From contig NC_069364.1 in NCBI RefSeq assembly GCF_021730395.1, positions 83,467,972 through 83,531,971 on the forward strand: a stretch of DNA of 64,000 nt, in the 5' to 3' direction. Made by a program: the position numbers and the translations under genes. The notes beneath the pieces were generated by a model that saw nothing but the letters and a program-made list of their open reading frames with translations, searched no databases and had not been told where the DNA came from. Below are positions 1 through 43,087 of the stretch, in pieces; within the stretch, counting starts at the first letter, position 1, and the number at the start of each line of letters is the position of its first letter. Origin of the DNA: Mercenaria mercenaria. Lineage: Eukaryota.

Positions 1-11
1 TGGCAGTACCA

Positions 12-9870: not shown

Positions 9871-10032
9871 CTGTGTAGTTTCCTTTAAAGAATCTTTCTT
9901 CCATGGAGCGACACTTCCTGGCAATCTGAAACTAACCATCTCCCCTTCTACCTGTAATTCTGCCACATATGTGATCTTGATCAAGACCGTAGCTCCTGGT
10001 GGAAGATTGCCAACACTTACAGTAAACACATC
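9871..10032 (-). CDS. PARP4-like exon, VIT domain continued (DVFTVSVGNLPPGATVLIKITYVAELQVEGEMVSFRLPGSVAPWKKDSLKETTQ)
   Basis: Acceptor gatttcag and donor ACACAG|GTAAGG. VIT-domain block F.V.VGNLPP...V.I.I.YV.EL, 54 codons in phase 0. It overlaps ORF 9724..10029(-). Confidence 0.8.
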
Positions 10033-10835
10033 CTGAAATCAAATAAGAAACTTTTTTGAAGTCTGTGCACAAAAAGAATTTTACTTTTTCATTTAAGGCT
10101 TTATTCTGCATGACTAAATGAATGTTTAAACGTTCTCATCATTCTTTCATAGTCTCTGTAAACATCAAATATTGCATCACTGTTAAGAAAAACAACAACC
10201 TTATTTGCCACTCATATTCATCAGAAAATAAGACTTCAACTTACAAGAACCAAATTTGCAATACTGTTGTATATCATGGCATTGCATTTTCCATATGTAA
10301 TGGGTTTGTACTAGTTCAACATCTTTTAGAAGTTTGCCAAAATCATTTTTTTTTACATAAAATTACATGGACATTTTTTGGCATAAAATTAAAATTGCAT
10401 TGGACAAGTTAAGGTGAATAATGAGACTAACCCATACAGTTTAGGCCAAAAATAATTTCTAACAAAAATCCATGAAAATTGAGTTCTCTGAAAGTGACTT
10501 TTGGTACAAATTTATTGACATAAGATTTTTACAAGATATTCTTATAAATAACCAAAAATATTGTGCAGAAGGTAGTAAACTGTTGCAACGCTGCTGAAAT
10601 AATGCAGAAAATTTATATTCTTCTTGCATTTTTACCAATATCTAACTTTTGTTCTCACCAAGTTTATCATTTTTCTGTGTCATATATGCCAAACTGTGTG
10701 GAAATGACCACATTGAAAAATTTCACCCAAACTGTGGGTGAGTAGCTTTAAGAATTTAAAATATGTTCTTACAAGAAAAGAGCAAAAATAAAATTGTTCC
10801 TTGTGAAGTCCAGACTTATGATGCTATGTACTTAC

Positions 10836-11060
10836 AGGTGTTTCTTCATCTTGGTCCATGAGGTAGGCACCATGACCTTCACTGATTGCTTTCTTATATT
10901 CTTTGTGAGCTTGTTCCTTCTCTTTCACCTCACCAACAATATGTTTACCATTGATAAATGCTTCAAACCCACACACAGCAGCAAGGTCCCCCAGCGGGAA
11001 GACATATTTTGCCTCCAGTGGATTCTTACTGTTGTTCTCATACTCTTGAAGAACTATCAC
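10836..11060 (-). CDS. PARP4-like exon, VIT domain (VIVLQEYENNSKNPLEAKYVFPLGDLAAVCGFEAFINGKHIVGEVKEKEQAHKEYKKAISEGHGAYLMDQDEETP)
   Basis: Acceptor gtttaacag and donor ACACCT|GTAAGT. This is the canonical VIT-domain block (YVFPL...AAV.GFEA.I.GK.I.G...EKE.A...Y..A...G..A.L). It overlaps ORF 10824..11060(-). Confidence 0.8.
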
Positions 11061-11227
11061 CTGTTAAACAACAAAAGTCAAACATCTACATGTTGACTGT
11101 AAAAAAACATGTTGTATTTTTTTTTTATTCAAAGGGTCATAACTTGTGAAAATTCAACTAACTCTAAACCCATTTAATGTGTACAACTAATGACTGTTCC
11201 TGAGAAGTTTCATTTAAATCCTGCCAA

Positions 11228-11480
11228 TAGTGGAAATTATTTTAGAATTAAAATAATTTAATTTATTTTTTCTCAAACTGTTGCTCGTTAATTACCGTCT
11301 GCTAGTTTATTAAACTGTCGTCTGTTTTCGTATATAAACGTGTCATCGATATTGTTACACTTGGCTGATCTGAACTGGTTCCTACTGATACTGGTACCCA
11401 GTCGATATAATATAAATACCAATAATCTCGTGCAGTTCTCTCACATTTTGCTAGCTACACCGTCGGTAACGTCAAAACTA
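11228..11480. repeat. About 250-bp duplicated promoter-like segment P, copy 1 (copy 2 at 16074-16320)
   Basis: ggaaattattttagaattaaaataatttaatttattttttctcaaactgttgctcgttaattaccgtctgctagtttattaaa.tgtcgtctgttttcgta.ataaacgtgtcatcgatattg...gatataatataaatacc...ctacaccgtcggtaacgtcaaaacta is over 98% identical between copies. Copy 2 abuts the end of repeat R copy A. Confidence 0.85.
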
Positions 11481-15206: not shown

Positions 15207-16072
15207 TGGCGGTAAAGTTCTGTCGGCCGTGAGGTGAGCGGATACGGTGTCTGTATGTTTGCATTCAAGTTGCGTACTTTGGGGTATCATATGTTTACCA
15301 GTTTGTGTTAACTGGATAGTAAAAGGTTTTGCCCTAGTACTTGGCAATTCCTAGTGTTGCGTGTGTTGCGTACGTTGCGTTGCTCTCAGTGGTGTCACTT
15401 TGCCTTGCCTTGCCTTGCCTTGCCTTTCATTGACTCGTGTTGCGGTTTTGCTCATTCTCGGTGAAACCCGAAATGGGTGGAATGGTAGCTCGACGTTCAA
15501 TTGAAATTGTTGTGTGTTTGCATTTGAGTGATACCTGTTATAAAGTGCAAAGTGTCTTGTGTTGCTTTGCCTTTGAGTGACACCTGTTACAAAGTACAAA
15601 GTGTCTTGCGTTACTTTGCGTTGTTTGAGTGATACCTGTTACAAAGTACAAAGTGTCTTGCATTGCTTTGCCTTGTGGTCCGTTGTGTTATACTGCCTCG
15701 CTTTACATTGGCTAGGGTTGTGCATTTGACCGCATCCCGGTGACACCCGGGCTGGGTTGGATTCACAATTCGAAGTTCGATGGATTGCGCAGTTGCGTTG
15801 TTTTTGCAAGCCTTGGGTTGGTGCGTCTGTTCTCCTCTCGGTCGACGGATTTTGCTGTGCTTTTAACGACTCTACACGGTGAGACCCTTGTTGAGTCATG
15901 AGCGGCCGATCAACTCCCAATATTGTCAATATACTTTTACTGAATTTAATTAAATTATTACAAAATGTATCATGCGTATGTTTAACTATCGTTGAAAGTA
16001 TCAATGCATATTCTTGATGAATAAAGAGTGTTGTATGAGATAATTGGTTTTTTATTTGAGTAATAAAATAAT
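15207..16072. repeat. 866-bp direct repeat R, copy A (copy B at 17354-18213), inside the 7.8-kb PARP4-like intron
   Basis: tggcggtaaagttctgtcggccgtgaggtgagcgg...gagtaataaaataat is over 98% identical between copies. It contains a ccttg microsatellite and three 60-bp internal subrepeats (gagtgatacctgttacaaagtacaaagtgtcttgcgttactttgc). Confidence 0.9.
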
Positions 16073-16073
16073 G

Positions 16074-16320
16074 GAAATTATTTTAGAATTAAAATAATTT
16101 AATTTATTTTTTCTCAAACTGTTGCTCGTTAATTACCGTCTGCTAGTTTATTAAATTGTCGTCTGTTTTCGTAGATAAACGTGTCATCGATATTGTTACA
16201 CTTGGCTGATCTGAACTGGTTCCTATTGATACTGGTACCCAGTCGATATAATATAAATACCAATAATCTCGTGCAGTTCTCTCACATTTTGCTAGCTACA
16301 CCGTCGGTAACGTCAAAACT
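16074..16320. repeat. Duplicated promoter-like segment P, copy 2
   Basis: See copy 1. Confidence 0.85.
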
Positions 16321-17353
16321 ACCCGCCCGCCACACCCTGTATTTATAGGAAACTTTCGAAACATAGAGTTTTGCATCTTTAATTTCGGGCTAGTATGGTA
16401 GTTTTAACAACTTGCTAGAATACTTTGTCAGTATTTTATATACACTTTACTGATCTATTTATGTTGATCTTACATCATCTGTGGAATGTTTTATGAAATT
16501 GGTTCAAAGTTGTATAGGAAATTTGCATAAAGTCCATCTATTTAACAATAGCTAACGTTGATGTTCTAGTTCAAGTTAATTGTTATTGTCCACCCGGTCT
16601 TGACGACTGAGTTGTTAGGTACTGCCGTCTTTTTACTTACAATTGCAGGGTTAAACCGTGCCAAAGTAAATTGATGAGGGTGATATACCGGAGAGCAATA
16701 ACACTGCAGAAGATAACACATCCAGCCATCAAAATGTATGACGGGGCTAGATGTCATCTTGTTACGTGACCAATGACTTCCAAATGTGAGATGTTCATAC
16801 CGTGTTATGAAGAAAAAACTGAGACATTTTGATGCAGTGTATATAAATTTTGTTATTTAAGAAAACAGTTTAGCATGGGCGTGACTATATTTGTATAAGA
16901 CTCTCCAGTATAATTTGAAAGATTTTATACTTCTTTAAAAAGGCACGGGATAGTTGATTGATATTAATATACGTATTTCTAGTATTAAAATATATAAACT
17001 AAATGTACAAGAAGACAATAGTGAAGTAATAAAATTATTAGAATAAGTTTCACTTTTTAAGTTAAATGTTTCGTATTGACATGAAATTCAAGGACAGGAA
17101 AATAATTATAGGAAGTATTGACTGTCGTAAATATTATTTCATGTGAACTTAAAAACTTTGTGATCACAGTTGGATATCACTAAGAAAATTCTGCTATTAT
17201 TTGTGGTAACAATTATTATGTAGGACACTGGCTTTTTAACTGTGACATTTGATAGACCTTAATATTAGTTTTTCTTCATCTTGTCATAATACTATAAGTA
17301 AAAGGTGTTTATTTATAATACTGGCTTGATGGATATTGTCGCTCATAATATGT

Positions 17354-18213
17354 TGGCGGTAAAGTTCTGTCGGCCGTGAGGTGAGCGGATACGGTGTCTG
17401 TATGTTTGCATTCAAGTTGCGTACTTTGGGGTATCATATGTTTACCAGTTTGTGTTAACTGGATAGTAAAAGGTTCTGCCCTAGTACTTGGCAATTCCTA
17501 GTGTTGCATGTGTTGCGTATGTTGCGTTGCTCTCAGTGGTGTCACTTTGCCTTGCCTTGCCTTGCCTTTCATTGACTCGTGTTGCGGTTTCGCTCATTCT
17601 CGGTGAAACCCGAAATGGGTGGAATGGTAGCTCGACGTTCAATTGAAATTGTTGTGTGTTTGCATTTGAGTGATACCTGTTATAAAGTGCAAAGTGTCTT
17701 GTGTTGCTTTGCCTTTGAGTGACACCTGTTACAAAGTACAAAGTGTCTTGCGTTACTTTGCGTTGTTTGAGTGATACCTGTTACAAAGTACAAAGTGTCT
17801 TGCATTGCTTTGCCTTGTGGTCCGTTGTGTTATACTGCCTCGCTTTACATTGGCTAGGGTTGTGCATTTGACCGCATCCCGGTGACACCCGGGCTGGGTT
17901 GGATTCACAATTCAAGTTCGATGGATTGCGCAGTTGCGTTGTTTTTGCAAGCCTTGGGTTGGTGCGTCTGTTCTCCTCTCGGTCGACGGATTTTGCTGTG
18001 CTTTTAACGACTCTACACGGTGAGACCCTTGTTGAGTCATGAGCGGCCGATCAACTCCCAATATTGTCAATATACTTTTACTGAATTTAATTAAATTATT
18101 ACAAAATGTATCATGCGTATGTTTAACTATCGTTGTAAGTATCAATGCATATTCTTGATGAATAAAGAGTGTTGTATGAGATAATTGGTTTTTATTTTGA
18201 GTAATAAAATAAT
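17354..18213. repeat. 866-bp direct repeat R, copy B
   Basis: See copy A. The spacing between copies is 2147 bp. Confidence 0.9.
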
Positions 18214-18625: not shown

Positions 18626-18871
18626 TAAATTATTTCTTAAATATTTACTGATCTTTATTCATTCTACTGAATGCACAAGTACTGATTTCAGTACAAAACG
18701 TAAAATAAATCTATAAACAGAAATGGAAGGACATTTTTCTTCATAGATCTTTTTTTCTTAATCTCTCCCTGTCTTGATTCAGGAATAAAAGTGACAAAAA
18801 TCCATTTTCAAGCAGTAAAATTTAGAAACTAATGACAATATCTTAAATAACTTTATATAATTTTAAACACT

Positions 18872-19002
18872 TTAAACCCACCTCAGATGCAAGGTCCATC
18901 AATTTTGCTCTGACATGTACAGATTTAAGATTCACAGGCACATCATCATTACAAACAAGACCAGCCTTGACCTTTGACATAGGGTCAACAATGTCCTTGA
19001 CA
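18872..19002 (-). CDS. PARP4-like exon, linker and start of the VIT domain (SLKDVKDIVDPMSKVKAGLVCNDDVPVNLKSVHVRAKLMDLASE)
   Basis: Acceptor ttgttgcacag and donor TCTGAG|GTGGGT. The pattern VP..LKSV.V.... continues without a break, in phase 0, into the exon at 11060 after a 7.8-kb intron. Confidence 0.7.
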
Positions 19003-19821
19003 TCTTTCAGACCTGTGCAACAAAGTAATGATATAGAACACTTGTAAAATCCTAAAAGTCAATATCCTTCTTTCATTTTAACATTTAAGATATATCTTAT
19101 ATAAGTAAAAGATACAAATACTAACTCATTTTGAAAATACAAGAAAAAGATACAAATACTTATTAATTTTGGATTTGTATAAATGTACAGTCTAACATAC
19201 CTGTAAAAACCACCCTTTGGAAATGAAGAATATGGTCTTTGTTGACAGGACTGGTAGTCCCTCAACAAAGATAAATTTACACTATTAGAGTGTCATCGGG
19301 GAAAGGAAATTGTGGCCTTTATAGACAGGTTTTGTAGTAGGGCTCTTTATTCGGAGTTGGTCTTTAGCAAAAGTCAGAATATTATTAAATTCAAGATTTT
19401 CACTGATATAAGCATTTTCATAACTTGAGTATTTACAAGAAAAGAATATTTTGAAAAGAAAACTACAATGCTGATATAGTTCACTGATTAAGCGTTCAAT
19501 CTAATTATATTTCTTGAAGATAATATTTCAGATAAGATCATAAACACTGTTGTACTGTACCTATAACAATATGTTATTGTAGAAGAAGACCTCTATAAGC
19601 TGTTGCTTTCGGCTCTGATACTTTTTCAGGCATTATCTTCTGTACTATGTATCATGAATTGTAAATACTGCAATCATTGTTTGAAATAACCTACATATGT
19701 ATGTTTAAACTAATGCTGATATGTTTACACCAAAAATTGTTATAAAATAGGGATATAATCTGAGTTTTACTAAACCGATCTGGAATTTGGCACTTTATTG
19801 TGTATGTGATTTAATACATAC

Positions 19822-19975
19822 TGATTTCATTAGCATCTTCATCATCTAACTCTGATATTTCCTCTGTATTTACATATTCTTCAAAAGTCTCTTTAATCAC
19901 ATCAGTATCGGTTGTAAACTCCACCAGATATTTCAGTCTCTGTTGATCCGGACTGTACACAACATACTCATCATT
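19822..19975 (-). CDS. PARP4-like exon following the catalytic domain (NDEYVVYSPDQQRLKYLVEFTTDTDVIKETFEEYVNTEEISELDDEDANEI)
   Basis: Acceptor ctgcacag and donor ATCA|GTATGT, in phase with the neighbouring exons. The block E(Y/F)VVY...Q....YL..F is the usual end of a PARP catalytic domain. Confidence 0.6.
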
Positions 19976-20034
19976 CTGTGCAGTATAAGTATATACATGT
20001 AGTTTTGGTTAAGCTTATAAGTAACACCAAATCC

Positions 20035-20155
20035 ATTTCGGTCATATGGCAACTTTCCAGTCTAAAAGGTGGAGTAAGACCCCTGGTGCACCTTCAGCCA
20101 TTATTTCAGGCAAAGTACGAGTGATTTGAAATTGTTGACCTTAACCACTTGGCCA
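20035..20155 (-). mobile_element. SINE family 1, truncated copy
   Basis: ggtcatatggcaactttccag...gtttggccaagtggttaagg is a partial match to the SINE1 tail and head. Confidence 0.45.
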
Positions 20156-20457
20156 AACATTTATAAATAACACATATAACTATGCATACATCATAAATCT
20201 ATTTCTATGCATATTTCTCCACTAGTATTTCAATTTCAAGACATGAAGCCGTTGTATAGTTAAAGGCAAATACGACAATGATGATAATTGTGGTGTTTCT
20301 AGAGAAGGAATTACAGTATTATTATTATCATCTTGATATTGATGATAAAATCAATAATTGATATGTATGACAACTACCTGATAATGATAAACATGACTTC
20401 ATGAACATATATCTTAATCAAGCTAAAGCCTAATTTCATTTAGGTTGAAAAACTTAC

Positions 20458-20641
20458 CTTGAAAGCAGACGGAAATTCTTCAGATGTTTTCACACCATGA
20501 ATACTGTGGTAACCTTCAGGTGCACAGGTCAAGGTCAAATCCTTTTGATACATAGTTTTGCAGTTGCCAAGGGCAACCTCACTAACTAGCATGAATCTTG
20601 TACCCTTCTTTTGACTTGGAGAGGAATAGCCCACACTAGTA
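20458..20641 (-). CDS. PARP4-like exon, catalytic domain C-terminal part (TSVGYSSPSQKKGTRFMLVSEVALGNCKTMYQKDLTLTCAPEGYHSIHGVKTSEEFPSAFK)
   Basis: Acceptor tttattttag and donor TTCAAG|GTAAGT. PARP signature (L/M)L.CEVALG...L......P.G.HS..G. It overlaps ORF 20440..20634(-). Confidence 0.8.
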
Positions 20642-21191
20642 CTAAAATAAAGTACTGCACATTATTGTGTGTCAAAGTAAATGAGCTGCACAAACATAAT
20701 CGGCAGTTAAAGTGTAAACGTTTTACTGAGAGTTAAGTTATCTTCGTGTACTTACAATAAAATGTTGACAACAATCAAACCATTTCAATTTAAGCTAATC
20801 AAATTTAACTTGACTGAGTAAAGCTCAATGCTAATTTGAACAATAAATAAGTCTATTTCCTCAAATAAAAAGTACTCGTTACAATGTTATGTTTGAGCTT
20901 GGAGACCAGTCTGAGAGTGCAACTCTGTCATTGGTAGATTTCCAATCTGTTTTCAGAAACAATCAATCAGATGCTGGAGTTTTGAGACTGGTTTCTAACC
21001 TCAACTTTTATATTTCTGGGCCCTGATGGTACATAAGAAGACATCTTTGTGACCCTCCCAACAGTTAAATCAACAACCTCTGAGCTGGGCCAAAGACACC
21101 TTATTCGCAAGATCACAGCTAATATTCCTTATTTGAATCAAATGTTTCCCAGCAAACAAAATCACATGTGAAATAGCATTAAAAGTTTTAC

Positions 21192-21290
21192 CTGGCTGCA
21201 CTTGCGAAGTAAATTCCTGAACCAAGCATGCCTGGATCAGACCTTGTACCTCCATGGTCGTCAACCACAACTCTAGGCATTAATAATCCT
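21192..21290 (-). CDS. PARP4-like exon, catalytic domain (GLLMPRVVVDDHGGTRSDPGMLGSGIYFASAA)
   Basis: Acceptor gttttag and donor CCAG|GTAAAA. The GSGIYFA motif is the PARP-family G(K/S)GIYFA nicotinamide-pocket block. Confidence 0.75.
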
Positions 21291-21866
21291 CTAAAACAAA
21301 CAGAAATAGATCAAGTGTTAAGAAATTGAAAGGTTGTATGTTAGCTATCAATACACTCTGTGAATATAAAAAAACACTGTTTAACATCTTTGGCATTATT
21401 CATATACACACTAGTGTGAATAGTGCACTGTACTAAGTGAAGATACTTTTACGAAAGTTTGAAAGTTCCACTTATAACTTAAAGAAAAAACAAATCTTAG
21501 ATTTTATCACACATTATCCATCAATGAGAAAAACAAGGAGCTGCATTAGTATCAAGTCATTCTGGTAAGGGGTATTGATGCTAGACGAAACGGTCCCATT
21601 TTGCTTAACCTCGTATGGATGGACAGACGGACAGGACAATCACTATATGCCTCCCGCATCAGTAGATGCTGGTGGCATAAAAATATCACAATCGCATTTC
21701 TCTTATTATGCAAAAAGTATCAAATTAATAATTTCAAGCTATTTTTCAAATTTTCCTGAAGGTTTTATAATTCATCTACAATACAGATCTATAGGTTACA
21801 TATATACAACGCACATTAGGATGTATACATACTGTATCCCTATTGTAAAACATTTAGAATACTTGC

Positions 21867-22004
21867 CTTGACAAGATTCCTACGATATTATTGGCCTTGG
21901 AAGCATGGAAGAGAAGTTGTTTATTGGGAATATCACATGTGAAATTGGTGCTCTCCACTGGACGATTCACAGCAAATACTGCCTGAATTTTTATAGTACA
22001 GTCT
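21867..22004 (-). CDS. PARP4-like exon, catalytic domain (DCTIKIQAVFAVNRPVESTNFTCDIPNKQLLFHASKANNIVGILSR)
   Basis: Acceptor tttatttcag and the non-canonical donor TCAAG|GCAAGT, a GC-AG intron. The sequence follows the PARP block LL(W/F)HGS..N..GIL..GL, and the frame gives ...ILSR+GLLMPRVV with the next exon. Confidence 0.7.
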
Positions 22005-25417: not shown

Positions 25418-25665
25418 ATGATATGAGCCGAGCCATGAGAAAACCAACATAGTGTGTTTGCGACCAGCATGGATCCAGACCAGCTTGCACATCCACGCAG
25501 TCTGGTCAGGATCCATGCTGTATGCTAACAGTTTCTCTAATTCCAATAGGCTTTGAAAGCGAACAGCATGGATCCTGACCAGACTGCGCGGATGGGCAGG
25601 CTGGTCTGGATCCATGCTGGTCGCAAACCCACTATGTTGGTTTTCTCATGGCATGACTCATAATT
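25418..25665. mobile_element. Palindromic MITE family A, long copy
   Basis: Same termini as the copy at 1027, with an internally duplicated palindrome core (ggatccagaccagc.tgcacatcc.cgcagtctggtcaggatccatgctg). It shares extended flanks (atatgagccg.gcc) with the copy at 57176. Confidence 0.7.
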
Positions 25666-27138: not shown

Positions 27139-27327
27139 GATTTTGATTGTCTCCCGTCAAGTCACATAAACATGTTATTTTATGTTTTATAGAATCATAT
27201 CAATACACAAACACTTTGTCAATATTGCAGTGTTCTTCAATCATATTTCAGCTCTCTGTCATTAATTACGTCTTTCTTAGTGAAATATACTTTTTTTGGA
27301 GAACTATTAGTTTTGTTTTCATTTTTG

Positions 27328-27585
27328 TTGGGTTTAACGTCACAAACACAATTATAGGTCATCTGGCAACCTTTCAGCTTTGATGGTGAAGTCCCCAGGT
27401 GCCCTTCCATGCATTATTTCATCACAGGCGGGCACCTGGGTAGAACCACCAACATTCCGTAAGCCAGCTGGATAGCTTCCTCACATGAAGAATTCAACGC
27501 CCCGAGTGAGGCTCAAACCTACATTGATGAGGGGCAAATGATTTGAAGTCAGAGACCTTAACCACTAGGCCACAGAGGCCCCTTT
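27328..27585 (-). mobile_element. tRNA-derived SINE family 1
   Basis: The rc begins aaggggcctctgtggcctagtggttaaggtctctgacttcaaatca (tRNA-like D- and T-box regions) and ends cctataattgtgtttgtgacgttaaaccc. It is about 90% identical to the copies at 29724 and 59020. Confidence 0.75.
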
Positions 27586-27649
27586 GTTATGGAACTCATC
27601 AGTTGTAATCAAACTATCAACAATTATTACTGTTCAGTATTCATCTGCA

Positions 27650-28500
27650 TGTTAACCTTTAGCCTACTGGTTGCAAGTGATGTTGCCTTTGTGGCCAGTG
27701 TAGATCAAGATCAGCCTGCATGCTAACCTTTAGTCTACTGACTGCAAGTGATGTAGCCTTTGTGGCCAGTGTAGATCAAGATCAGCCTGCATGTTAACCT
27801 TTAGCCTACTGACTGCAAGTGATGTTGCCTTTGTGGCCAGTGTAGATCAAGATCAGCCTGCATGTTAACCTTTAGCCTACTGACTGCAAGTGATGTAGCC
27901 TTTGTGGCCAGTGTAGATCAAGATCAGCCTGCATGTTAACCTTTAGCCTACTGACTGCATGTGATGTTGCCTTTGTGGCCAGTGTAGATCAAGATCAGCC
28001 TGCATGTTAACCTTTAGCCTACTGACTGTAAGTGATGTTGCCTTTGTGGCCAGTGTAGATCAAGATCAGCCTGCATGTTAACCTTTAGCCTACTGACTGT
28101 AAGTGATGTTGCCTTTGTGGCCAGTGTAGATCAAGATCAGCCTGCATGTTAACCTTTAGCCTACTGACTGCAAGTGATGTTGCCTTTGTGGCCAGTGTAG
28201 ATCAAGATCAGCCTGCATGTTAACCTTTAGCCTACTGACTGCAAGTGATGTTGCCTTTGTGGCCAGTGTAGATCAAGATCAGCCTGCATGTTAACCTTTA
28301 GCCTACTGACTGCAAGTGATGTTGCCTTTGTGGCCAGTGTAGATCAAGATCAGCCTGCATGTTAACCTTTAGCCTACTGACTGCAAGTGATGTTGCCTTT
28401 GTGGCCAGTGTAGATCAAGATCAGCCTGCATGTTAACCTTAGCCTACTGACTGCAAGTGATGTAGCCTTTGTGGCCAGTGTAGATCAAGATCAGCCTGCA
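27650..28500. repeat. Satellite, about 62-bp monomer, about 14 copies, derived from MITE family B
   Basis: The unit ttaacctttagcctactgactgcaagtgatgttgcctttgtggccagtgtagatcaagatcagcctgcatg is the rc of the family-B segment gcaggctgatcttggtctgcactggtcacaaaggcaggatcacttgc..cagcaggcttatggttaa. Confidence 0.85.
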
Positions 28501-28801
28501 TGTCCCTGCATGCTCACCTTGGTCTGCACTGTTCCACAAGTCTGTAAATTTTCAGTGAACACCCCTTTGAATAATAAGTGGTACTTCTCAAAATGAATGA
28601 TGGACCAGTCCATTTTAGAACTATAGCAAGGTAAAGGTTACCAGTAAGTTATAGTTAACATCCAAGAACCACAGACAAATTATTAAATGGTTAAGTGATT
28701 GCTGTCACTCTGTAAGTTTTTTACTAACAGCACAAACACCCTATTTGCCGTCAAAATACTTAAAGAACCCCAGAAACTATCCTAGAAGTCTTAATACTTA
28801 C

Positions 28802-28936: not shown

Positions 28937-29723
28937 CTGTAAATCAAAACATTCAGTATGAGCTAATCTCTAATGCAATTCCATAAAATATTAATTTTTG
29001 CTTTTCACTCAAACTTAGAAATTAAAGATATAAAACTCTACTCATTAGTGTCATTTTCCAAGTAAGCTTATCAACAATGATAGTATACAAATATAAAGTA
29101 TTGATCTTTTGCTATTTTCTTTAGCGCATACCCGTTAGTTTTCTAAGTGTCTGAAATACATAACACATTAGCAGGGCAACTGAATTCTGGAATATGCTTT
29201 ATGACCAAAGAATAGTACTATGGTGTTCTGAAATATTTGAGCTATTTGCAGACTGATCTAAGTACAACTGAATTTGGCGCCTTGGATTCAGACCTGGTTA
29301 AATCGTGGCTTATAAAGAAAGCCACATCACTGTTATAGTCTAAGACGGATCCTACTATTAAACTACTTTGAACCAGTGTTCTACTCTTTTATTTGCCAAA
29401 AGTTAGGAACATCATTCTGAAATCAAGGTCACAAAGGAATAAACCAGAAATGTAATGAGATATGCATTACCTCCCCTTTAAAGAGGGCAAATTTTGCAAT
29501 TTGGAAATCCTTGGTGAAAGTAGGACAGTTTTTGTCATCTTGTTTCCACATCTTGAAGCTGCTTATGTTAATAAAGGGTTTGATACTTTTCTTTTTGTCC
29601 TTTTTCTGAAATCTGGAGGCTGAAGATATAAAGAGCAACTAAATATTTTAAACCTTAATTTGAGGTAAGACTTTTTGTTAATCATCAAATTGATGTACTG
29701 TATGCTGATACCCTCATTTTTTG

Positions 29724-29986
29724 TTGAGTTTAATGTCACACGACACAATTATAGGTCACATGGTGACTTTACAGCTTTCCATGGTGGAGGAAGATCCCAG
29801 GTGCCCATTCAGGAATTATTTCATCACAGGCCGAGGCACCTGGGTAGAACCACCAACTTTCTGTAAGCCAGATGGATGGCATCCTCACATGAAGAATTTA
29901 TGCCCCAAGAGAGGCTTGAACCCATACTGATGAGAAGCAAGTGATTTTGAAGTCAGCAACCTTAACTCCTCCACAACAAAGGCCCC
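29724..29986 (-). mobile_element. tRNA-derived SINE family 1
   Basis: Same family as the copy at 27328. It lies in a PARP4-like intron. Confidence 0.75.
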
Positions 29987-30998
29987 AGGTCAAACAGAAC
30001 TTTGGGATATTGATGGAATTAAACAAAATGGGAAATACAGAAAATGGTGATATTTATTTCCCATATATACATGTTCTGAAGATATAAAAAACTTGAAATA
30101 TGTACACTGCTTGTACAAATACTGATATTTGATTGATAGATTTCAAAATATTCAAACAATGACCGCCCTACCATCCAATATCATCTAAGACACCCCAACT
30201 CATGCATTTAAAACGCGGAAATTCTGTAAGAAATGTTTACTCTTTTTGAGACCTTTAAATCAAAATGACCTTATGCATTCCATGCTACAGAATTTAAACA
30301 TTTTGCTCTAATTATACCAACACTGTTTGCACTGATCATGGGCATGTTTTAAGTTTTTCCGAGATCAATACAATTGATCTCAGTTATATACATTACCTAC
30401 TTGTAGGAACAAATTATACAAACAGACTAGATATATTGCTTTTGGTAAACACATTTATCTCTCAGTAAGACCTCAATGGCTTCCTTAAGCAATGATATTA
30501 AGGTGTATACATAACTTTATATGTGTGCATATAAATAGATACTGTGAAATCATTTAATTTCCAGGGCATGAAATTTCGTGATTTTGGTCAAAACGGCAAT
30601 TTCGTGGGGATATGAATTCGTGGATTTCAATTTTTGATTTGTTTGAACATACAATATATGGCAATTTTATTTTTTCGTTGCAATGGGATCAAATTTCGTG
30701 GATTGACTCAACCACGAAATCCACGAAAATTAGTCCCCCACAAATATTAATGATTTCAAAGTATTGTTCTACCTAACATTTGTAAGCACTATTTTTTAAA
30801 CCACCACAATTTAATTACATCCTTTATTCATGCTGTTGCAACCTGCTCTAATGATTTCTGTATTGCAAATTAAGGCCTAGAGCTGATAGTTTACAGTCTC
30901 TCCTGTTCAACTGAATTTTACAACATGATCTTTTTTAATATTTTTAATGACCCTGTGTATAAATCTACTTTAAAACATTATTTTAATATACTATATAC

Positions 30999-31197
30999 CT
31001 GATATCTTTCCTTCCTTGAGTCCCTCAGATTTAGATTTTCCCGCCATCAAATAGTCATCTGTACTGAGCTGGTGCCCGGCTTCAATACTCATCTTGATCC
31101 AGTCTACAGACACAACCGGAAAACCGTACTTGGCCGCCATTTTACATTTATATGAGAATTCTGCCTTCTTGCTATCATCACACACAACATGTGTACT
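30999..31197 (-). CDS. PARP4-like exon: BRCT domain C-terminal half (STHVVCDDSKKAEFSYKCKMAAKYGFPVVSVDWIKMSIEAGHQLSTDDYLMAGKSKSEGLKEGKIS)
   Basis: Acceptor catattcag and donor CAG|GTATAT. The BRCT signature (THVV..., GFPVVS.DWI..SI..G..L...DY) overlaps ORF 30991..31185(-). Confidence 0.7.
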
Positions 31198-31721
31198 CTG
31201 AATATGTAAATATATATATGTATGGGTATCACAATAAAAAGGACCACCACGATAGATTTCCTCAAAACCTTTTCTAGTGGTTAAGCTGTCCAGTGAGAAC
31301 CTTTTTTGTATATCTGCATCATAGTTTAATGAAAGAGCATGTTAATACAGTAAACGAAAATAGATTAAGCAGTTTTTAATATATTAAGTGCCTTTTCTAC
31401 CACATTCTGTATTGTACTGATGCAAAAACAGAGTTTCCAAATTTTAGTGTGAAGACAGCTTAAGTTCTGTTAGTGCCTCAGTCCTGGTCATCAATGACAT
31501 TTTTTTTTTCTTTGATTTTACAGGATCTTGAAAAACTTTTATTTCAGACAGAAAATTATGTTCTGGAATATAAATTAAATTGCTATAGCATAGTACATAG
31601 TAATAAGAGGATTACTTTCTATCTATCTTCAGTTGGTATAATGCATGTGATTTTATCTCCATACTAATGTTCAATCAGATCTTCAGTTCCCAAAACTTAC
31701 AGAATGTGTAATTTGACATAC

Positions 31722-31850: not shown

Positions 31851-32455
31851 TTTCTGTTTATTCTGTAATCACATATAGCTGAAAAAATATGACTGATATT
31901 AAGAAAAAAATGAAACTAGACTCTTTGCCATCAATACATTTTTAATCTTTAGCCTGCTGGCTGCAAGTGATTTTGCCTTTGCGACCAGTGCATACCATGA
32001 GCATTGTTTTTTACAGTACTTCCAAAATTCTGCCTTGACAGAAATTGAAACACAAAATCAGACAGAAACATTTTATATTATCTTTAGCATTTCTGTTTGT
32101 GAATGATTTATAAACTGAATGTTAATGCTATGTTAACAAACTAAAACAAGAATGATGTGTTTGTAAAATGCGCATGCCTCTCATGCTGGCTTTTCCTGAT
32201 CACTATGACCTTTGTCCAACTGACCCCAAAAAAATATGGGTAATCTACTGACCACAGTTTGATGCCTGTAGACCAAAGTGTTCTCCACTTATTGATTGGA
32301 AACCATTTTCAGTCTCAAGGTCACTGCAGCCTTGACCTTTAACCTACTGACCCCCAAAACAATATGGCTCATCAATTGCCACAGCAGGCAATGCTCATTA
32401 ATTTTGCAGATAATGTGAAGATAGAAATGTGTTACGTATAAGTTAGATAATACAT

Positions 32456-34319: not shown

Positions 34320-34990
34320 TTCTAAGTGTATTAGCGCAAAATAATTTAACTAGACAAATGACCACCCTAGACAGTCAAGTGTATTATCACTAGACAATTG
34401 ACCACCCTAGACAGTCAAGTGTATTATCACTAGACAACTGACCACCCTAGACAGTCAAGTGTATTGTCATTAGACAATTGACCACCCTAGACAGTCAAGT
34501 GTATTGTCACTGGACAATTGACCACCCTAGACAGTCAAGTGTATTGTCACTGGACAATTGACCACCCTAGACAGTCAAGTGTATTGTCACTAGACAATTG
34601 ACCACCCTAGACAGTCAAGTGTATTATCACTAGACAATTGACCACCCTAGACAGTCAAGTGTATTATCACTAGACAAATGACCATCCTAGACAGTCAAGT
34701 GTATTATCAACAGTCAAGTGTATTATCACTAGACAAATGACCACCCTAGACCGTCAAGTGTATTATCATTAGACAAATGACCACCCTAGACAGTAAAGTG
34801 TATTATCATTAGACAAATGACCATCCTAGACAGTCAAGTGTATTATCACTAGACCAATGACCACCCTAGACAGTCAAGTGTATTATCATTAGACAATTGA
34901 CAACCCTAGACAGTCAAGTATATTATCACTAGACAATTGACCACCCTAGACAGTTAAGTGTATTATCATTAGACAAACTAGAGCTATCAC
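34320..34990. repeat. 40-bp satellite, block 1 (ctagacaattgaccaccctagacagtcaagtgtattatca)
   Basis: About 16 head-to-tail 40-bp units. Confidence 0.9.
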
Positions 34991-35039
34991 TAAAGATGAT
35001 GAATATACACCCCCCCCGCATGCACTGACACAGTACATT

Positions 35040-35790
35040 GCAATTTGACGCACACAAGATTGCATAGTTATGTGGACTGTATGTATATAGACTGTATGTA
35101 TACAGTATAGTAACAAAAAACAAAGTTCCATAACTATACAGAATATTTACCTAAAAGAATGTAACATGCACCATGCACAACTAGGGTTGGAACTGATCAC
35201 TTGTGTGAAGTTTCATTAAATTGTGTGCAAGGGTTTGGTAGATTAGGCACGCACAAGATTGCATATGCAGACTGTATGTACATAGTATGTTAACAAGAAA
35301 CAAAGTCCCATAACTCTGCAATTTTTGTCGCTGAAAGAACCTAACATGCCCCATGCACAACTACTGTTGTTACTGATCACTTGTGTGAAGTTTCATTAAA
35401 TTGTGTCAAGGGGATGAGGAGAGGTGGTGCGCACAAGATTGTGTCTATGTATATAGTATAGTAACAAAAAAACAAAGTCCCATAACTCTGCAAATTTTTT
35501 TTCTAAAAGAACCTAACATGCCCCATGCACAACTACTGTTGGTACTGATCACTTGTGTGAAATTTCATTAAATTGTGTCAAGGGGATGAGGAGAGATGGT
35601 GCGCACAAGATTGTGTCTATGTATATAGTATAGTAACAAAAAAAAAAAGTCCCATAACTCTGCAAATTTTTTTTCTAAAAGAACCTAACATGCCCCATGC
35701 ACAACTACTGTTGGTACTGATCACTTGTGTGAAGTTTCAAAAATTCTGTCAAGGGGATAAGGAGAGATGGTGCGCACAAGATTGCGTCTA
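35040..35790. repeat. Tandem repeat, about 172-bp unit, 4 copies, interrupting the 40-bp satellite
   Basis: The unit contains gcacaagattg..tatgtatatagtatagtaacaaaaaaacaaagtcccataactctgcaa...cctaacatgccccatgcacaactactgttggtactgatcacttgtgtgaagtttcattaaattgtgtcaaggggatgaggagag.tggtgc. It ends in a GACA/GACG tract at 35785-35815. Confidence 0.85.
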
Positions 35791-35864
35791 CGGACAGACG
35801 GACAGACAGACAACCTGAAACCAGTATACCCCCCCCCCTTACAACTTTGTTGTCGCGGGGTACA

Positions 35865-38800
35865 ATGACCATCTTAGACAGTCAAGTGTATTATCACTAG
35901 ACAAATGACTACCCTAGACAGTCAAATGTATTATCATTAGACAAAAGACCATCCTAGACAGCCAAGTGTATTATCACTAGACAAATGACTACCCTAGACA
36001 GTCAAATGTATTATCATTAGACAAAAGACCACCCTAGACAGTCAAATGTATTATCACAGTAGACAGTCAAGTATATTATCACTAGACAAGTGACCACCCT
36101 AGACAGTCAAATGTATTATCACAGTAGACAGTCAAGTATATTATCACTAGACAAGTGACCACCCTAGACAGTCAAATGTATTATCACTAGACAAATGACC
36201 ACCCTAGACAGTCAAGTGTATTATCACTAGACAAATGACCACCCTAGACAGCCAAGAGTATTATCACTAGACAAATGACCACCCTAGACAGTCATCAGTG
36301 TATTATCACTAGACAAATGACCACCCTAGACAGCCAAGTGTATTATCACTAGACAAATGACCACCCTAGACAGTCAAATGTATTATCACTAGACAAATGA
36401 CCACCCTAGACAGTCAAGTATATCATCACTAGACAAATGACCACTCTAGACAGTCAAATGTATTATCACAGTGGACAGTCAAATGTGTTATCACTAGACA
36501 AATGACCACCCTAGACAGCCAAATGTATTTAATATCACTAGACAAATGACCACCCTAGACAGCCAAGTGTATCACAGTAGACAGTCAAGTGTGTTATCAC
36601 TAGACAAATAACCACCCTAGACAGCCAAATGTATTTAATATCACTAGACAAATGACCACCCTAGACAGCCAAGTGTATTATCACTAGACAAATGACCCCC
36701 CTAGACAGTAAAGTGTATTATCATTAGACAAATGACCATCCTAGTCAGTCAACTATATTATCACTAGACAAATGACCACCCTAGACAGTTAAGTGTATTA
36801 TCATTAGACAAATGACCATCCTAGACAGTCAAGTGTATTATCATTAGACAAAAGACCACCATAGACAGTCAAATTATTATCAGAGTAGACAGTCAAGTAT
36901 ATTATCACTAGACAAATGACCACCCTAGACAGTCAAACGTATTATCACTAGACAAATGACCACCCTAGACAGTCAAGTGTATTATCACTAGAAAAATGAC
37001 CACCCTAGACAGCCAAGTGTATTATCACTAGACAAATGACCACCCTAGACAGTCAAGTGTATTATCATTAGACAAATGACCACCCTAGACAGTCAAGTAT
37101 ATTATCACTAGACAAATGACCACCCTAGACAGTCAAATGTATTATCACAGTAGACAGTCAAGTGTGTTATCACTAGACAAATGACCACCCTAGACAGCCA
37201 AATGTATTTAATATCACTAGACAAATGACCACCCTAGACAGTAAAGTGTATTATCATTAGACAAATGACCACCCTAGACAGTCAAGTATATTATCACTAG
37301 ACAACTGACCACCCTAGACAGTCAAATGTATTATCACAGTAGACAGTCAAGTGTGTTATCACTAGACAAATGACCACCCTAGACAGTCAAGTGTATTATC
37401 ACTAGACAAATGACCACCCTAGACAGCCAAGTGTATTATCACTAGATAAATGACCACCCTAGACAGTCAAATGTATTTAATATCACTAGACAAATGACCA
37501 CCCTAGACAGTCAAGTGTATTATCACTAGACAAATGACCACCCTAGACAGTCAAATGTATTTAATATCACTAGACAAATGACCACCCTAGACATTCAAGT
37601 GTATTATCACTAGACAAATGACCACCCTAGACAGTCAAATGTATTTAATATCACTAGACAAATGACCACCCTTGACTGTCAAGTGTATTATCACTAGACA
37701 AATGACCAACCTAGACAGTCAAGTGTATTATCACTAGACAAATGACCATCCTAGACAGTCAAATGTATTTAATATCACTAGACAAATGACCACCCTAGAC
37801 AGCCAAGTGTATTATCACTAGACAATTGACCACCCTAGACAGTCAAATGTATTTAATATCACTAGACAAATGACCACCCTAGACAGCCAAGTGTATTATC
37901 ACTAGACAAATGACCACCCTAGACAGTCAAATGTATTTAATATCACTAGACAAATGACCACCCTAGACAGTCAAGTGTATTATCACTAGACAAATGACCA
38001 CCCTAGACAGTCAAATGTATTAATATCACTAGACAAATGACCACCCTAGACAGTCAAGTGTATTATCACTAGACAAATGACCACCCTAGACAGTCAAATG
38101 TATTTAATATCACTAGACAAATGACCACCCTTGACAGTCAAATGTATTTAATATCACTAGACAAATGACCACCCTAGACAGTCAAATGTATTTAATATCA
38201 CTAGACAAATGACCACCCTAGACAGTCAAGTGTATTATCACTAGACAAATGACCACCCTTGACTGTCAAGTGTATTATCACTAGACAAACGACCACCCTA
38301 GACAGTCAAGTGTATTATCACTAGACAAATGACCATCCTAGACAGTCAAATGTATTTAATATCACTAGACAAATGACCACGCTAGACAGCCAAGTGTATT
38401 ATCACTAGACAAATGACCACCCTAGACAGTCAAATGTATTTAATATCACTAGACAAATGACCACCCTAGACAGTCAAATGTATTATCACTAGACAAATGA
38501 CCACCCTAGACAGTCAAGTGTATTATCACTAGACAAATGACCATCCTAGACTGTCAAAGTAGTTTAATATCACTAGACAAATGACCACCCTAGACAGTCA
38601 ATGTATTTAATACACTAGACAAATGACCACCCTAGACAGCAAGTTATTCACAAAATACCACTGCTGTCAAGTATTAATCACTAGACAAACGACCACCTAG
38701 ACAGTCAAGTGTATTATCACTAGACAAATGACCACACCATATTAGACAAATGACCACGCTAGACAGTCAAGTGTATTATCACTAGACAAATGACCACCCT

Positions 38801-39215
38801 AGACAGTCAAATGTATTTCATATCACTAGACACATGATCAACCTAGACAGTCAAATGTATTATCATTAGACAAAAGACCACCCTAGACAGTCAAATGCAT
38901 TATCACAGTAGACAGTCAAGTGTATTATCACTAGACAAATGACCACCCTAGACAGTCAAATGTATTTCATATCACTAGACACATGATCAACCTAGACAGT
39001 CAATGTATTATCACTAGACAAAAGACCACCCTAGTACATGCCTAAGTAGTATTATTATCACTAGACAAATGACCACCCTATGACAGTCAAGTGTATTTGA
39101 TCCACCTAACACAAATTAGCACCAAATCCACTAGACAGCAAGTGTATTATCTAAATCCACTAAGGTACAACAAATGACCACCTAGATCAAGTGTATTATC
39201 ACTAGACAAATAAGT
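35865..39215. repeat. 40-bp satellite, block 2 (about 84 units, with variants gtcaaatgtatttaatatcactagacaaatgaccaccctagaca)
   Basis: Continuous 40-bp periodicity over 3.3 kb. Confidence 0.95.
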
Positions 39216-39484
39216 GAATGAAGTATTGCCATGCAATACTAAGTCCCTTACTGGAAGGCACCTAATTTTCTCTACTGCAGTATAACATAATGAACTGATA
39301 TTTGTCAGTGATGTATAAACAATATTGTACTATACTAATCCCCATTGATAACGTGGTTCCCGCCGAAACGCAAGGACGAGTCTAATTCATGATAACTGAT
39401 GTAATAACAATTCATTATGCATGCACATTACTTGACAAGCAAATATTAGTATTTCTTTCATTTTAGATATCCACTGTGTATATG

Positions 39485-39572
39485 GCAACATAGCTCAGTT
39501 GGGTAAAATGCAGACAACAGCTGGATATCAGCAAATCGTTTTATGGTTTCGAATCCTCATGAGTTTTTTTCA
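39485..39572 (+). other. tRNA-like sequence (degenerate, SINE-head-like)
   Basis: gcaacatagctcagttgggtaaaatgcag...ggtttcgaatcc. D-box and T-box elements are present but no acceptor pairing. It converges on a second tRNA-like copy on the minus strand 260 bp away. Confidence 0.4.
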
Positions 39573-39827
39573 GAATTTTTTTTTGTTTTCTTTTTCTATT
39601 CATTTTCATTTTTGCTTCCGTATTTTTGTTTGTTTCTTTGATGGTTTGTATTTATATAACACAATATTGTGTTCATTACATGTATTCGTATGGCTTAAGT
39701 GCATGCATTTAATCAATATCATCTTTGATATATAATAAACTGCCATACCGCAGTAGATACCTCTCTGTCGTGTTGTCACAGAGCTCATGAAGGAATCTTA
39801 TTTTTTATGCAAAAGTGAAAAAAAAAT

Positions 39828-39915
39828 TAAATGTCGATGGTGAGTTTCGAATCCACACGGCAAAAGATCTGTTGAACATGGACAGTATGCTTTACCACTG
39901 AGCTAATTCGTAATT
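39828..39915 (-). other. tRNA-like sequence (degenerate), convergent partner
   Basis: The rc reads gaattagctcagtggtaaagcat...ggattcgaaactcacc. Confidence 0.4.
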
Positions 39916-40229
39916 GGTACAAAATCTAGAAATATTTAGATTGTAACATGTTAGAAAAATGTTGAATTCCCTATGTCCCAGTTTCATCTATATATAGTCA
40001 TGTTTGTAAATATCAAATTATTGTTGGGGCATAGTATATGTTATAACAACACACTTGGATTAAAATGTGCATATATAAAAACCCACAGTTGTTTTCATAT
40101 TGAATTGTTTTGGCTGATTATAAAAATGTTATCATGTAAGTTATTTATAGTAACAACAAAGGGAAATTAATCTTAAAAAAAAAACAAAAAAAAACAAGAG
40201 ATCACAGAGTGATCTTGACGCCCACCATT

Positions 40230-41510
40230 GAGCCATTTCTGATTGTTCCAAATTTCAAGACTAGCTCAAGGTCAAATTTCATTTCAGTACACATCACTGT
40301 GCATGTGGCCTATGCATGTGGTCCAAATTTGAAAGCTGTAGCTTGAGAAATGTGAAAGAAGGTCACAAGACCAATTTCAAGGTCAAAGTTCATTTCGGTA
40401 TACAAAACTATGCATATGCTTCAAATTTGAAGCCTGTAGCTTTAGAAATGTGAAAGTAGGTCACTAGGTCAATCTCAAGATCAAAATTCATTTCGGTACA
40501 CAAAACTATGCATGTGGTCCAAATTTGAGGGCTGTAACTTGAGAAATGTGAAAGTAGGTCACTAGGTCAAAATCAAGGTCAAATTTCATTTCGGAACACA
40601 AAACTATGCATGTGGTCCAAATTTGAAGCCTGTACCTTCAAAAATGTGAAAGTAGGTCACTAGGTCAATGTCAAGGTCAAAGTGTTTTTCAGTACACAAA
40701 ACTATGCATGTGGTCCAAATTTGAAGGTTGTAGCTTGAGAAATGTGAAAGTAGGTCACTAGGTCAATGTCAAGGTCAAAGTTTCTTCGGTACACAAAACT
40801 ATGCATGTGGTCCAAATTTGAAGGTTGTAGCCTGAGAAATGTGAAAGTAGGTCACTAGGTCAAAATCAAGGTCAAATTTCATTTCGAAACACAAAACTAT
40901 GCATGTGGTACAAATTTGAAAGCTGTAGCTTGAGAAATGTGAAAGAAGGTCACAAGACCAATTTCAAGGTCAAAGTTCATTTCGGTATACAAAACTATGC
41001 ATGTGGTCCAAATTTGAAGGCTGTAGCTTGAGAAATGTGAAAGTAGGTCACTAGGTCAATGTCAAGGTCAAAGTTTTTTTCGGTACACAAAACTATATGC
41101 ATGTGGTCCAAATTTGAAGGCTGTAGCTTGAGAAATGTGAAAGTAGGTCACTAGGTCAAAATCAAGGTCAAATTTCATTTCGGAACACAAAACTATGCAT
41201 GTGGTCCAACATTGAAGCCTGTACCTTCAAAAATGTGAAAGTAGGTCACTAGGTCAATGTCAATGTCAAAGTTTTTTTCCGTGCACAAAACTATGCATGT
41301 GGTCCAAATTTGAAGCCTGTACCTTCAAAAATAAGAAAGTAGGTCACTAGGTCAATGTCAATGTCAAAGTTTTTTTCAGTGCACAAAACTATGCATGTGG
41401 TCCAAATTTGAAGGCTGTAGCTACAGAAATGTGGAAGTATGTCACTAGGTCAAAATCAAGGTCAACTCATGTCAATGTTCATCTTGCCACTCAAAACTAT
41501 ACATGTGGTC
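40230..41510. repeat. Satellite, about 100-bp monomer, about 13 copies, related in inverted orientation to the 145-bp satellite at 2025-3695
   Basis: The unit is gaaatgtgaaagtaggtcactaggtcaaaatcaaggtcaaatttcatttcggaacacaaaactatgcatgtggtccaaatttgaaggctgtagcttga. The segment ggtcactaggtcaaa.tcaagg matches the rc of the 145-bp monomer (ccttgatttgacctagtgacc). Confidence 0.8.
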
Positions 41511-41529
41511 CAAATCTGAATGTTGTAGG

Positions 41530-41810
41530 TTATTGACAAGAAGATTTTAAAAGCTTTTCCCTATATAAGTCTATATGAACCATGTGACCCCCGGGGGCAG
41601 GGCCATATTTGACCCTAGGGGGATAATTTGAACAAACTTGGTAGAGAACCACTAGATGATGCTACATAACAAATATCAAAGCCCTAGGCTTTGTGTTTGG
41701 ACAAGAAGATTTTCAAAGTTTTTCCCTATATAAGTCTATATAAACCATGGGGATAATTTGAACAATCTTAGTAGAAGACCACTAGATGATGTCACATGCA
41801 AAATATCAAA
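41530..41810. repeat. About 140-bp direct repeat, 2 copies (..gacaagaagattttcaaag.ttttccctatataagtctata..accatg...ggataatttgaacaa.ct.gtagaa.accactagatgatg..acat..aaatatcaaagccctag)
   Basis: Two diverged copies. The second leads directly into the 40-bp satellite. Confidence 0.7.
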
Positions 41811-41811
41811 G

Positions 41812-42895
41812 CCCTAGACAGTCAAGTGTATTATCACTAAACAAATGACCACCATTAACAGTAAAGTGTATTATCACAAGACAATTGACCATCCTAGACA
41901 GTCAAGTGTATTATCACTAAACAAATGACCACCCTAGCCAGTCATGTGTATTATCACTAGACAATTGACCACCCTAGACAGTCAGGTGTATTATCACTAG
42001 ACAAATGACCACCCTAGACAGTCAGGTGTATTATCACTAGACAAATGACCACCCTAGACAGTCAGGTGTATTATCACTAGACAAATGACCACCCTAGACA
42101 GTCAGGTGTATTATCACTAGACAAATGACCACCCTAGACAGTCAGGTGTATTATCACTAGACAAATGACCACCCTAGACAGTCAGGTGTATTATCACTAG
42201 ACAAATGACCACCCTAGACAGTCAGGTGTATTTTCACTAGACAAATGACCACCCTAGGCAGTCACGTGTATTATCACCAGACAATTAACCACCCTAGACA
42301 GTCAGGTGTGTTATCACTACAAAATTGACCCCCCTGGACAGTCAGGTGTATTATCACTAGACAAATGACCCCCCTAGACAGTCAGGTATATTATCACTAG
42401 ACAAATGACCACCCTAGACAGTCAGGTGTATTATCATTAGACAAATGACCACCCTAGACAGTCAGGTGTATTATCTGCCACTAGACAAATGACCACCCTA
42501 GACAGTCAGGTGTATTATCATTAGACAAATGACCACCCTAGACAGTCAGGTGTATTATCACTAGACAATTAACCACCCTAGACAGTCAGGTGTGTTATCA
42601 CTACAAAATTGATTCCCCTAGACAGTCAGGTGTATTATCACTAGACAAATGACCACCCTAGACAGTCAGGTGTATTATCACTAGACAAATGACCACCCTA
42701 GACAGTCAGGTGTATTATCACTAGACAAATCACCACCCTAGACAGTCAGGTGTATTATCTGCCACTAGACAAATGACCACCCTAGACAGTCAGGTGTATT
42801 ATCACTAGACAAATGACCACCCTAGACAGTCAAGTGTATTATCACTAGACAAAAGACCACCCTAGACAGTCAAGTGTATTATCACTAGACAATCT
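41812..42895. repeat. 40-bp satellite, block 3 (variant gtcaggtgtattatcactagacaaatgaccaccctagaca)
   Basis: About 27 units. Confidence 0.9.
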
Positions 42896-43087
42896 GACAC
42901 TCTATCTTAATAATCTTTGAACAAATTATTTTTAAAGTTACATGTACTATGATTTGCAGTGGAACAGTAGTTAAATTACCTGCGACTGCATTCTACAGTA
43001 TTGAGAAAAATGCCAATTTGCAATTAATTTACATCAAATGATGCAGGTGTGTATCTATCTATGTAATAATTATAGGTTATTATACAA

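Follow-up and report, generated by a model that had tools for sequence, protein, structure and literature searches.

The window analysed here, a 64-kb stretch of Mercenaria mercenaria DNA, is AT-rich (GC about 0.31–0.41), dense in tandem arrays and free of open reading frames (ORFs) longer than 172 aa between stop codons. Pfam, homologue and tblastn searches identified a PARP4-like gene on its minus strand, spanning 7602–31341, with a BRCT exon at about 30994–31341, PARP catalytic exons at 18852–21994, VIT exons at 9826–11063 and a VWA exon at 7602–7841. The best named match in the exon search was Crassostrea gigas PARP4-like (73%), the closest match being an ENA contig (89%). A contig of a related bivalve that carries the orthologous gene (L001) aligns with the window in exons only, at 69–85% nucleotide identity, and the introns are not comparable. 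The tandem array that is the subject of this analysis lies between the BRCT and PARP exons, from which we infer that it is intronic, in sense orientation to the PARP4-like gene. It sits 55–60 bp upstream of a tRNA-derived SINE. This SINE is ~265 bp long and has three copies in the window that are 71–80% identical (27321–27584 on the minus strand, 29718–29986 and 59017–59289). An Rfam search found nothing in the array and only the tRNA-like head of the neighbouring SINE (27498–27579; tRNA, 27.4 bits, below the gathering score).

The array extends over 859 bp of the minus strand (27645–28503) and is the sole array of its unit within the window. Tandem Repeats Finder reported a period of 71 bp, 12.1 copies, 97% matches, no indels and a score of 1,641, and the anchor CTGCATG[CT]TAACC marks 12 unit starts at a spacing of exactly 71 bp. 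An earlier, sequence-only reading of this DNA had placed an array near 27650–28500; both measures confirm that array, whereas the 62-bp period assigned to it is wrong, the programme and the unit spacing each giving 71 bp. The array is composed of 12 units of 71 bp and a 7-nt partial unit, the head-proximal unit being 70 bp. Read on the element strand, the unit is CAGGCTGATCTTGATCTACACTGGCCACAAAGGCAACATCACTTGCAGTCAGTAGGCTAAAGG-TTAA-CATG. Mean pairwise identity in a unit-by-unit alignment is 97.6%. Five of the 12 units equal the consensus and units m8–m11 are identical to one another, while 7 of the 11 variants, including a 1-bp deletion, fall in the edge units m1, m2 and m12. ORFs within the array amount to just 25 aa, and none longer than 45 aa overlaps 27600–28700. 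The unit core CACTGGYYRCAAAGGCNNNATCACTTGC had no exact match in JGI metagenomes, GTDB genomes or IMG/VR, collections that are poor proxies for the bivalve host.

Every unit matches, on the opposite strand, a dispersed repeat of the window, family B. This reverse-complement relation had been claimed from inspection and is borne out by blastn. With the reverse complement of 28406–28700 as query (unique sequence plus one unit), query positions 58–268 matched window positions 4398–4586 (73% over 214 bp, E=7e-32), 116–236 matched 5–123 (E=1.4e-15) and 208–262 matched 32003–31949 (80% over 55 bp, E=1.6e-8). An nhmmer profile built from three family-B copies aligned over model positions 1–215 with 28643–28428 (E=7e-68), and also matched 4398–4591 (E=7e-64). 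These matches are genuine: a 28-nt degenerate unit core, searched with up to 3 mismatches, found 14 sites in the window (the 12 units, family-B copy 2 and a fragment at 31.9 kb) versus none in 100 shuffles. Homology to family B extends over 67 of the 71 bp of the unit, comprising 63 bp of element and the TTAA. Across these 67 bp, which end at the TTAA, the unit consensus is 85.1% identical to copy 2, 82% to a copy in metagenome contig L008, 79% to the 31.9-kb fragment and 75% to copy 1; the identity above 85% over ~60 bp that had been proposed thus stands for copy 2 but not for the other three.

Family B is a non-coding element of about 190–215 bp (187–213 bp in canonical copies) with 17-bp terminal inverted repeats (motif CCTTTAGCCTGCT) and TTAA at both ends. 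Copy 2 (4400–4586, plus strand) is a canonical full-length copy of 187 bp, flanked on either side by TTAA, with terminal inverted repeats of 17 nt (TTAACCCTTGACCTGCT and AGCAGGCTTATGGTTAA) that are 76% identical, and the tail homologous to the array unit at 4520–4586. Copy 1 (1–156, plus strand) is cut by the window start and ends in GGTTAA, its TTAA lying at 153–156. The coordinates first given for these two copies (12–175 and 4470–4610) fell on the right elements but were incomplete, missing the 5′ half of copy 2. A complete copy of 203 bp is present in L008 (JGI metagenome contig Ga0182091_1486927), with a perfect 17-bp terminal inverted repeat (TTAACCTTTAGCCTGCT and AGCAGGCTAAAGGTTAA). L008 is one of six contigs returned by a scan of JGI metagenomes with the palindrome arm GCTGATCTTGRTCTRCACTGG; four others hold a palindromic module alone and the sixth, L005 (human gut), is a chance match. 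None of the six carries a tandem tail.

The degraded single copy expected near 31925–31990 exists, at 31942–32003 on the minus strand, and was recovered by blastn, by nhmmer (E=4e-13) and in the alignment. It has a TTAA end at 31942–31945, and its homology starts within ~6 nt of the point at which the array unit starts. That this fragment might be an internally deleted full element was considered and rejected since upstream head homology is absent, which makes the fragment a solo tail. This tail resembles the array consensus (79%) no more closely than it does other copies (81–82%). The family thus numbers three copies and one fragment in 64 kb, with one further copy in the metagenome contig. 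Copies are 68–80% identical to one another and carry no ORF; at this level of identity the dispersed copies are old.

Similarity among the four copies stops exactly at the TTAA on both sides, with no other flanking direct repeat. TTAA is found at 7 of 8 ends, the remaining one reading GTAA (5′ end of the array copy). Being short, non-coding and bounded by terminal inverted repeats, family B has the structure of a MITE, with TTAA as its putative target-site duplication. Both piggyBac and Kolobok transposons target TTAA. In piggyBac, the TTAA target is duplicated and the termini start CCY...RGG, the inverted repeat being CCCTAGAAAGATA. The termini of family B read TTAA/CCTTTAG... and ...CTAAAGG/TTAA, with a start of CC(T/C)TT, and the family is probably a piggyBac-like MITE, an assignment of superfamily made from few ends (four full or near-full copies and one fragment for the TTAA target site). 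No transposase ORF was found in the 64-kb window. Kolobok/T2 ends, on the other hand, carry an AGGRR/RR motif (PMC6004289); membership of the Kolobok/T2 MITEs was rejected because, although the TTAA is present, the termini are CC(T/C)TT and not RR. A SINE identity, considered for family B on account of its 5′-truncated copy, was also rejected given the inverted repeats and TTAA ends and the lack of a tRNA-like head or tail repeat. Separately, copies 1 and 2 share ~9 of 11 bases beyond the 3′ TTAA (T[AG]TCC[CT]AAA[CT]C; 156–170 and 4586–4600), which L008 and the array copy do not. The sharing could be due to chance, to a preferred target site or to a subfamily with a longer end, and some family-B copies could extend further.

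The array directly adjoins the single-copy head, or 5′ part, of a family-B element (28504–28641, minus strand), identified by blastn, nhmmer, inverted repeats and alignments. The alignment with copy 2 runs on past the unit through 28504–28641. The locus is therefore one full-length minus-strand family-B element (27652–28641) whose terminal 71 bp are repeated 12 times. The head had been overlooked because the earlier coordinates of copy 2 took in just its 3′ half. The 5′ terminal inverted repeat of the array-bearing copy is GTAACCTTTACCTTGCT (28625–28641), its terminal inverted repeats match over 15 nt at 80%, and its 5′ TTAA has decayed to GTAA (28638–28641). Each array unit contains the 3′ palindrome arm, the 3′ terminal inverted repeat, TTAA and 4 nt common to the flank. 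The direction originally proposed, from family-B element to array unit and not the reverse, is supported in two ways. The unit holds the 3′ terminal inverted repeat that pairs with the single-copy 5′ repeat in the head, and the dispersed copies, 68–80% identical, have one tail each (including that in L008) as against array units at 97.6%. The array is young or continuously homogenized by comparison with an old dispersed family.

Both borders of the array could be read to the base. Two ACATGCAG octamers bound it, 851 bp apart (12×71−1). The proximal octamer (28496–28503) lies in the loop of a hairpin; the distal one (27645–27652) is made of the last A of the terminal TTAA (27652–27655) and the flank bases CATGCAG. 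On the element strand, and with a slash at the border, the proximal junction reads ...GCAGGGACATGCAG/GCTGATC... and the distal junction ...AAAGGTTAACATGCAG/ATGAATAC.... Copies 1 and 2 also have TGCAG at their internal site, and it is therefore ancestral to family B. At the ACA of the internal octamer the other copies differ, copy 1 reading ATGTGCAG. The microhomology may thus have started out at just 5 nt, lengthened later by homogenization, and the ACA may be either original or homogenized. Whatever its phase, the unit takes in 63 bp of element, the TTAA and 4 nt shared with the flank, which argues that the array arose at its present locus after insertion and was not delivered by transposition.

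The hairpin is a palindromic module at 28476–28531 (minus strand), with a 5′ arm CAGTGCAGACCAAG at 28518–28531 and a 3′ arm CTTGATCTACACTG at 28476–28489. The first array unit starts in the hairpin loop, and only the first junction has both arms. In the alignment the ACATGCAG of the array copy occupies columns 48–55 and the 3′ arm begins at column 60. DNA folding gave z-scores of −3.3 for the array copy, −3.4 for copy 2 and −5.5 for copy 1; that of an isolated unit was −0.7. Pairing is conserved: in the consensus of nine sequences, which are kin and include two from one family, 18 pairs are formed with 94% of cells paired (28–36% in slid controls), 8 pairs are altered on both sides (two at most in slid controls) and none of 500 shuffles reaches the observed covariation score. 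The two arms thus change together, and pairing is kept. The module could have been conserved as a site for a transposase, out of structural need or through common descent, all of which are possible.

The module is found beyond family B. As a stretch of ~60–70 nt (GCGAACAGTGCAGACC..CTGATCAGACTGCGC / GCGCAGGCTGATC..GGTCTGCACTGGTCGC) it is common to at least three repeat families and to several independent bivalve-like data sets. In the window it occurs at 60–125, 4499–4547 and 28476–28531, at ~830–1360, and in a foldback-like family (~25420–25650 and ~57160–57400). In contigs it occurs in L001 (9784–9863), L003 (1234–1323), L004, L006 (316–399), L007 (3126–3202) and L008 (~1182–1246).

We favour, with a probability of about 0.7, a history in which a single old family-B element inserted in the PARP4-like intron and its 3′-terminal 71 bp were duplicated in place after insertion and expanded to 12 units. 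The founding duplication would have joined two copies of a short direct repeat, (ACA)TGCAG, spaced 71 bp apart: the first at the unpaired palindrome apex, the second where the element meets its flank. Such a palindrome can stall or break replication, and the duplication would probably have been seeded by slippage or a template switch during replication at the hairpin, or else by microhomology-mediated repair. Later growth and homogenization by unequal exchange or slippage would leave central units identical and edge units divergent. An edge-to-centre gradient of variants is the classic signature of unequal exchange, although in a single haplotype slippage, unequal sister-chromatid exchange and rolling-circle amplification look alike. 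The order of these events and the part given to the hairpin are what we infer from the anatomy, homology, boundaries, microhomology, hairpin and variant gradient, all of which are observed.

Could the locus instead be one array of a 71-bp satellite family that left the MITE and now occurs genome-wide? The unit is clearly derived from a transposable element (TE), a solo tail is found in the same orientation at a distance of 3.4 kb, and bivalves commonly have satellites of TE origin (PMC8268682, PMC11136912). Against this, there is a single array in 64 kb and it is still joined to its own element head; its unit includes junction and flank bases, pointing to a local origin; the unit core has no exact match in three public collections, none of them a collection of bivalve genomes; and the solo tail is 79% identical to the array consensus as against 81–82% to other copies. 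We consider a genome-wide family unlikely. The sequence-only reading had described a satellite born from a MITE. Its tandem amplification of the tail is upheld; a separate satellite, detached from the element, is not, since the array remains tethered to the head. The label satellite is premature and unjustified by the evidence. The array is a short, intronic, minisatellite-like run of 12 copies of a transposon end, and cellular function is not implied.

Less probable again is expansion by way of a circle, whether a tail excised in circular form was copied by rolling-circle replication or extrachromosomal circular DNA was reinserted. Rolling-circle routes have been discussed for TE-derived satellites (PMC12628747), and the 11 identical junctions and four identical central units are compatible with a burst. 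However, at its head end the array keeps exact register with its parent element, and at the other end with the native flank, such that reintegration would need homologous recombination at the same site, and the variants grade from edge to centre. Because of this perfect register with both parent element and native flank, a circular intermediate is less economical than duplication in place.

Tandem arrays are error-prone in assemblies, and an array or copy number produced by mis-assembled repeats has to be weighed. Yet substitutions private to individual units, and one 1-bp deletion, occur in non-periodic order, both borders join unique sequence cleanly and the window contains many other well-structured arrays, making an artefact very improbable. 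Least credible of all is that the satellite came first, a pre-existing 71-bp tandem repeat from which an ancestor of family B captured one monomer: tandem-repeat capture by MITEs has been proposed for Xenopus miDNA4 (reviewed in PMC12628747), but here the unit holds the 3′ terminal inverted repeat that is partner to the 5′ repeat, together with one arm of a palindrome, the opposite arm being in the single-copy head; several TE families and data sets share the palindromic module in unduplicated form; and family B is much older, or less homogeneous, than the array.

Duplication in place at a MITE tail has clear parallels, TE-derived tandem arrays being well documented, and the locus works like the known cases. 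In Xenopus, amplified MITE segments form tandem arrays in Xstir/Xmix (T2-MITE, Kolobok) and miDNA4 (a Tc1/mariner MITE), where MITE, composite MITE-plus-array and array forms coexist (PMC12628747; PMC6004289). As at the present locus, tandem units there derive from the MITE's own sequence, and stem-loops together with short direct-repeat microhomologies have been invoked as seeds (PMC12628747; PMC6004289); the target site of the T2 family is TTAA, the tetranucleotide seen at the ends of family B. The Xenopus arrays differ in that an internal segment bounded by both ends is amplified, whereas here it is the terminal 71 bp with inverted repeat, TTAA and junction bases. T2/Kolobok termini are AGGRR/RR, unlike the CC termini found here, and the window has a single such locus with no sign of transposing array-bearing elements.

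Among bivalves, the pearl elements of Crassostrea virginica and DTC84 of Donax trunculus offer a model system for links between TEs and satellite DNA (PMC3879986). They resemble the present locus in their bivalve host, in a short array within a small non-autonomous element, and in a palindrome near the unit junction that is a proposed hotspot for copy-number change. The core repeats of pearl/DTC84 are ~156 bp (up to 5) and central between left and right modules, with a microsatellite at one end of the array and a putative target-site duplication of AA. At the present locus the 71-bp unit is terminal without a right module, no microsatellite is present and the element ends in TTAA. Membership of pearl/DTC84 was rejected on the terminal array, the lack of a microsatellite and ends of TTAA rather than AA. 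Microhomology or palindrome hotspots, and the same class of event, have been described (PMC12628747, PMC3879986).

Two further systems are comparable. In Crassostrea gigas, Helentron/Helitron-N-borne arrays (Cg170 and others) are likewise short and satellite-like, lie dispersed in euchromatin and genes and are attached to parts of TEs (PMC7492417, PMC8268682). They belong to the rolling-circle class, and the element carries and spreads the arrays, whereas here an inverted-repeat-bounded element has undergone local expansion. In the foldback transposon Tetris of Drosophila virilis the region of the terminal inverted repeat also expands into tandem arrays (PMC4079207). There, internal tandem repeats are regular in the terminal repeats and a true multi-locus satellite results, whereas in family B a single tail is canonical and one copy has expanded.

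The locus is a clean, base-resolved case of a tandem array starting from a mobile element, with parent element, unit borders, seeding microhomology, breakpoint palindrome and homogenization gradient all readable in ~1 kb. It backs existing models (Xstir, miDNA4, DTC84) and opens no new one. It could serve as a teaching case and as a likely VNTR marker in the PARP4-like intron.

The 12-unit array and the solo tail at 31942–32003 both begin at the palindrome apex (within ~6 nt). We offer, as a speculation more likely wrong than right by a wide distance, that the module might be a recurrent point of breakage or template switching that releases or duplicates tail-only units, such that TTAA-MITEs like family B would systematically give rise to new families of tandem repeats in the genome. 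If this were true, 12 intact transposon ends, each with inverted repeat and TTAA, would give a resident transposase alternative ends and so lead to local rearrangement.

Several other repeats were recorded in the window. A 145-bp repeat forms an array of 10.9 copies at 2112–3694, and a related-looking 160-bp array of 3.8 copies lies at 6483–7111. Both the 145-bp repeat and the sequence flanking its array on the left (AAAAACAAGAGGGCCAAGATGGCCCTAGGTCGCTCACCTG), in the region 1940–3694, recur in metagenome contigs ~70 bp downstream of the palindromic module (L006 1–250 and L007 3269–3308), and the 145-bp array is for this reason probably also carried by a mobile element. Right after copy 1, positions 157–420 hold irregular repeats packed with the palindromic motif GCAAGCTTGC (HindIII sites).

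A block of 8.6 kb (34341–42898), far larger than the 71-bp array, consists mainly of three arrays of a 40-bp tandem repeat (TAGACAGTCAAGTGTATTATCACTAGACAAATGACCACCC) that show higher-order periods, and is interrupted by a 172-bp array of 4 copies (35095–35790) and a 98/293-bp array of 12 copies (40310–41465). Within the span of the PARP4-like gene there are local segmental duplications at 98.4–98.5% (15207–16072 versus 17354–18213, and 11226–11480 versus 16067–16321), which include a 49/52-bp mini-array. Finally, two ORF-like pairs have nearly identical translations, one pair direct and one inverted: 48953–49468 with 49928–50380, and 52860–53138 (minus strand) with 55713–55991 (plus strand). 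Since neither pair has a Pfam match, they are probably further repeat families.
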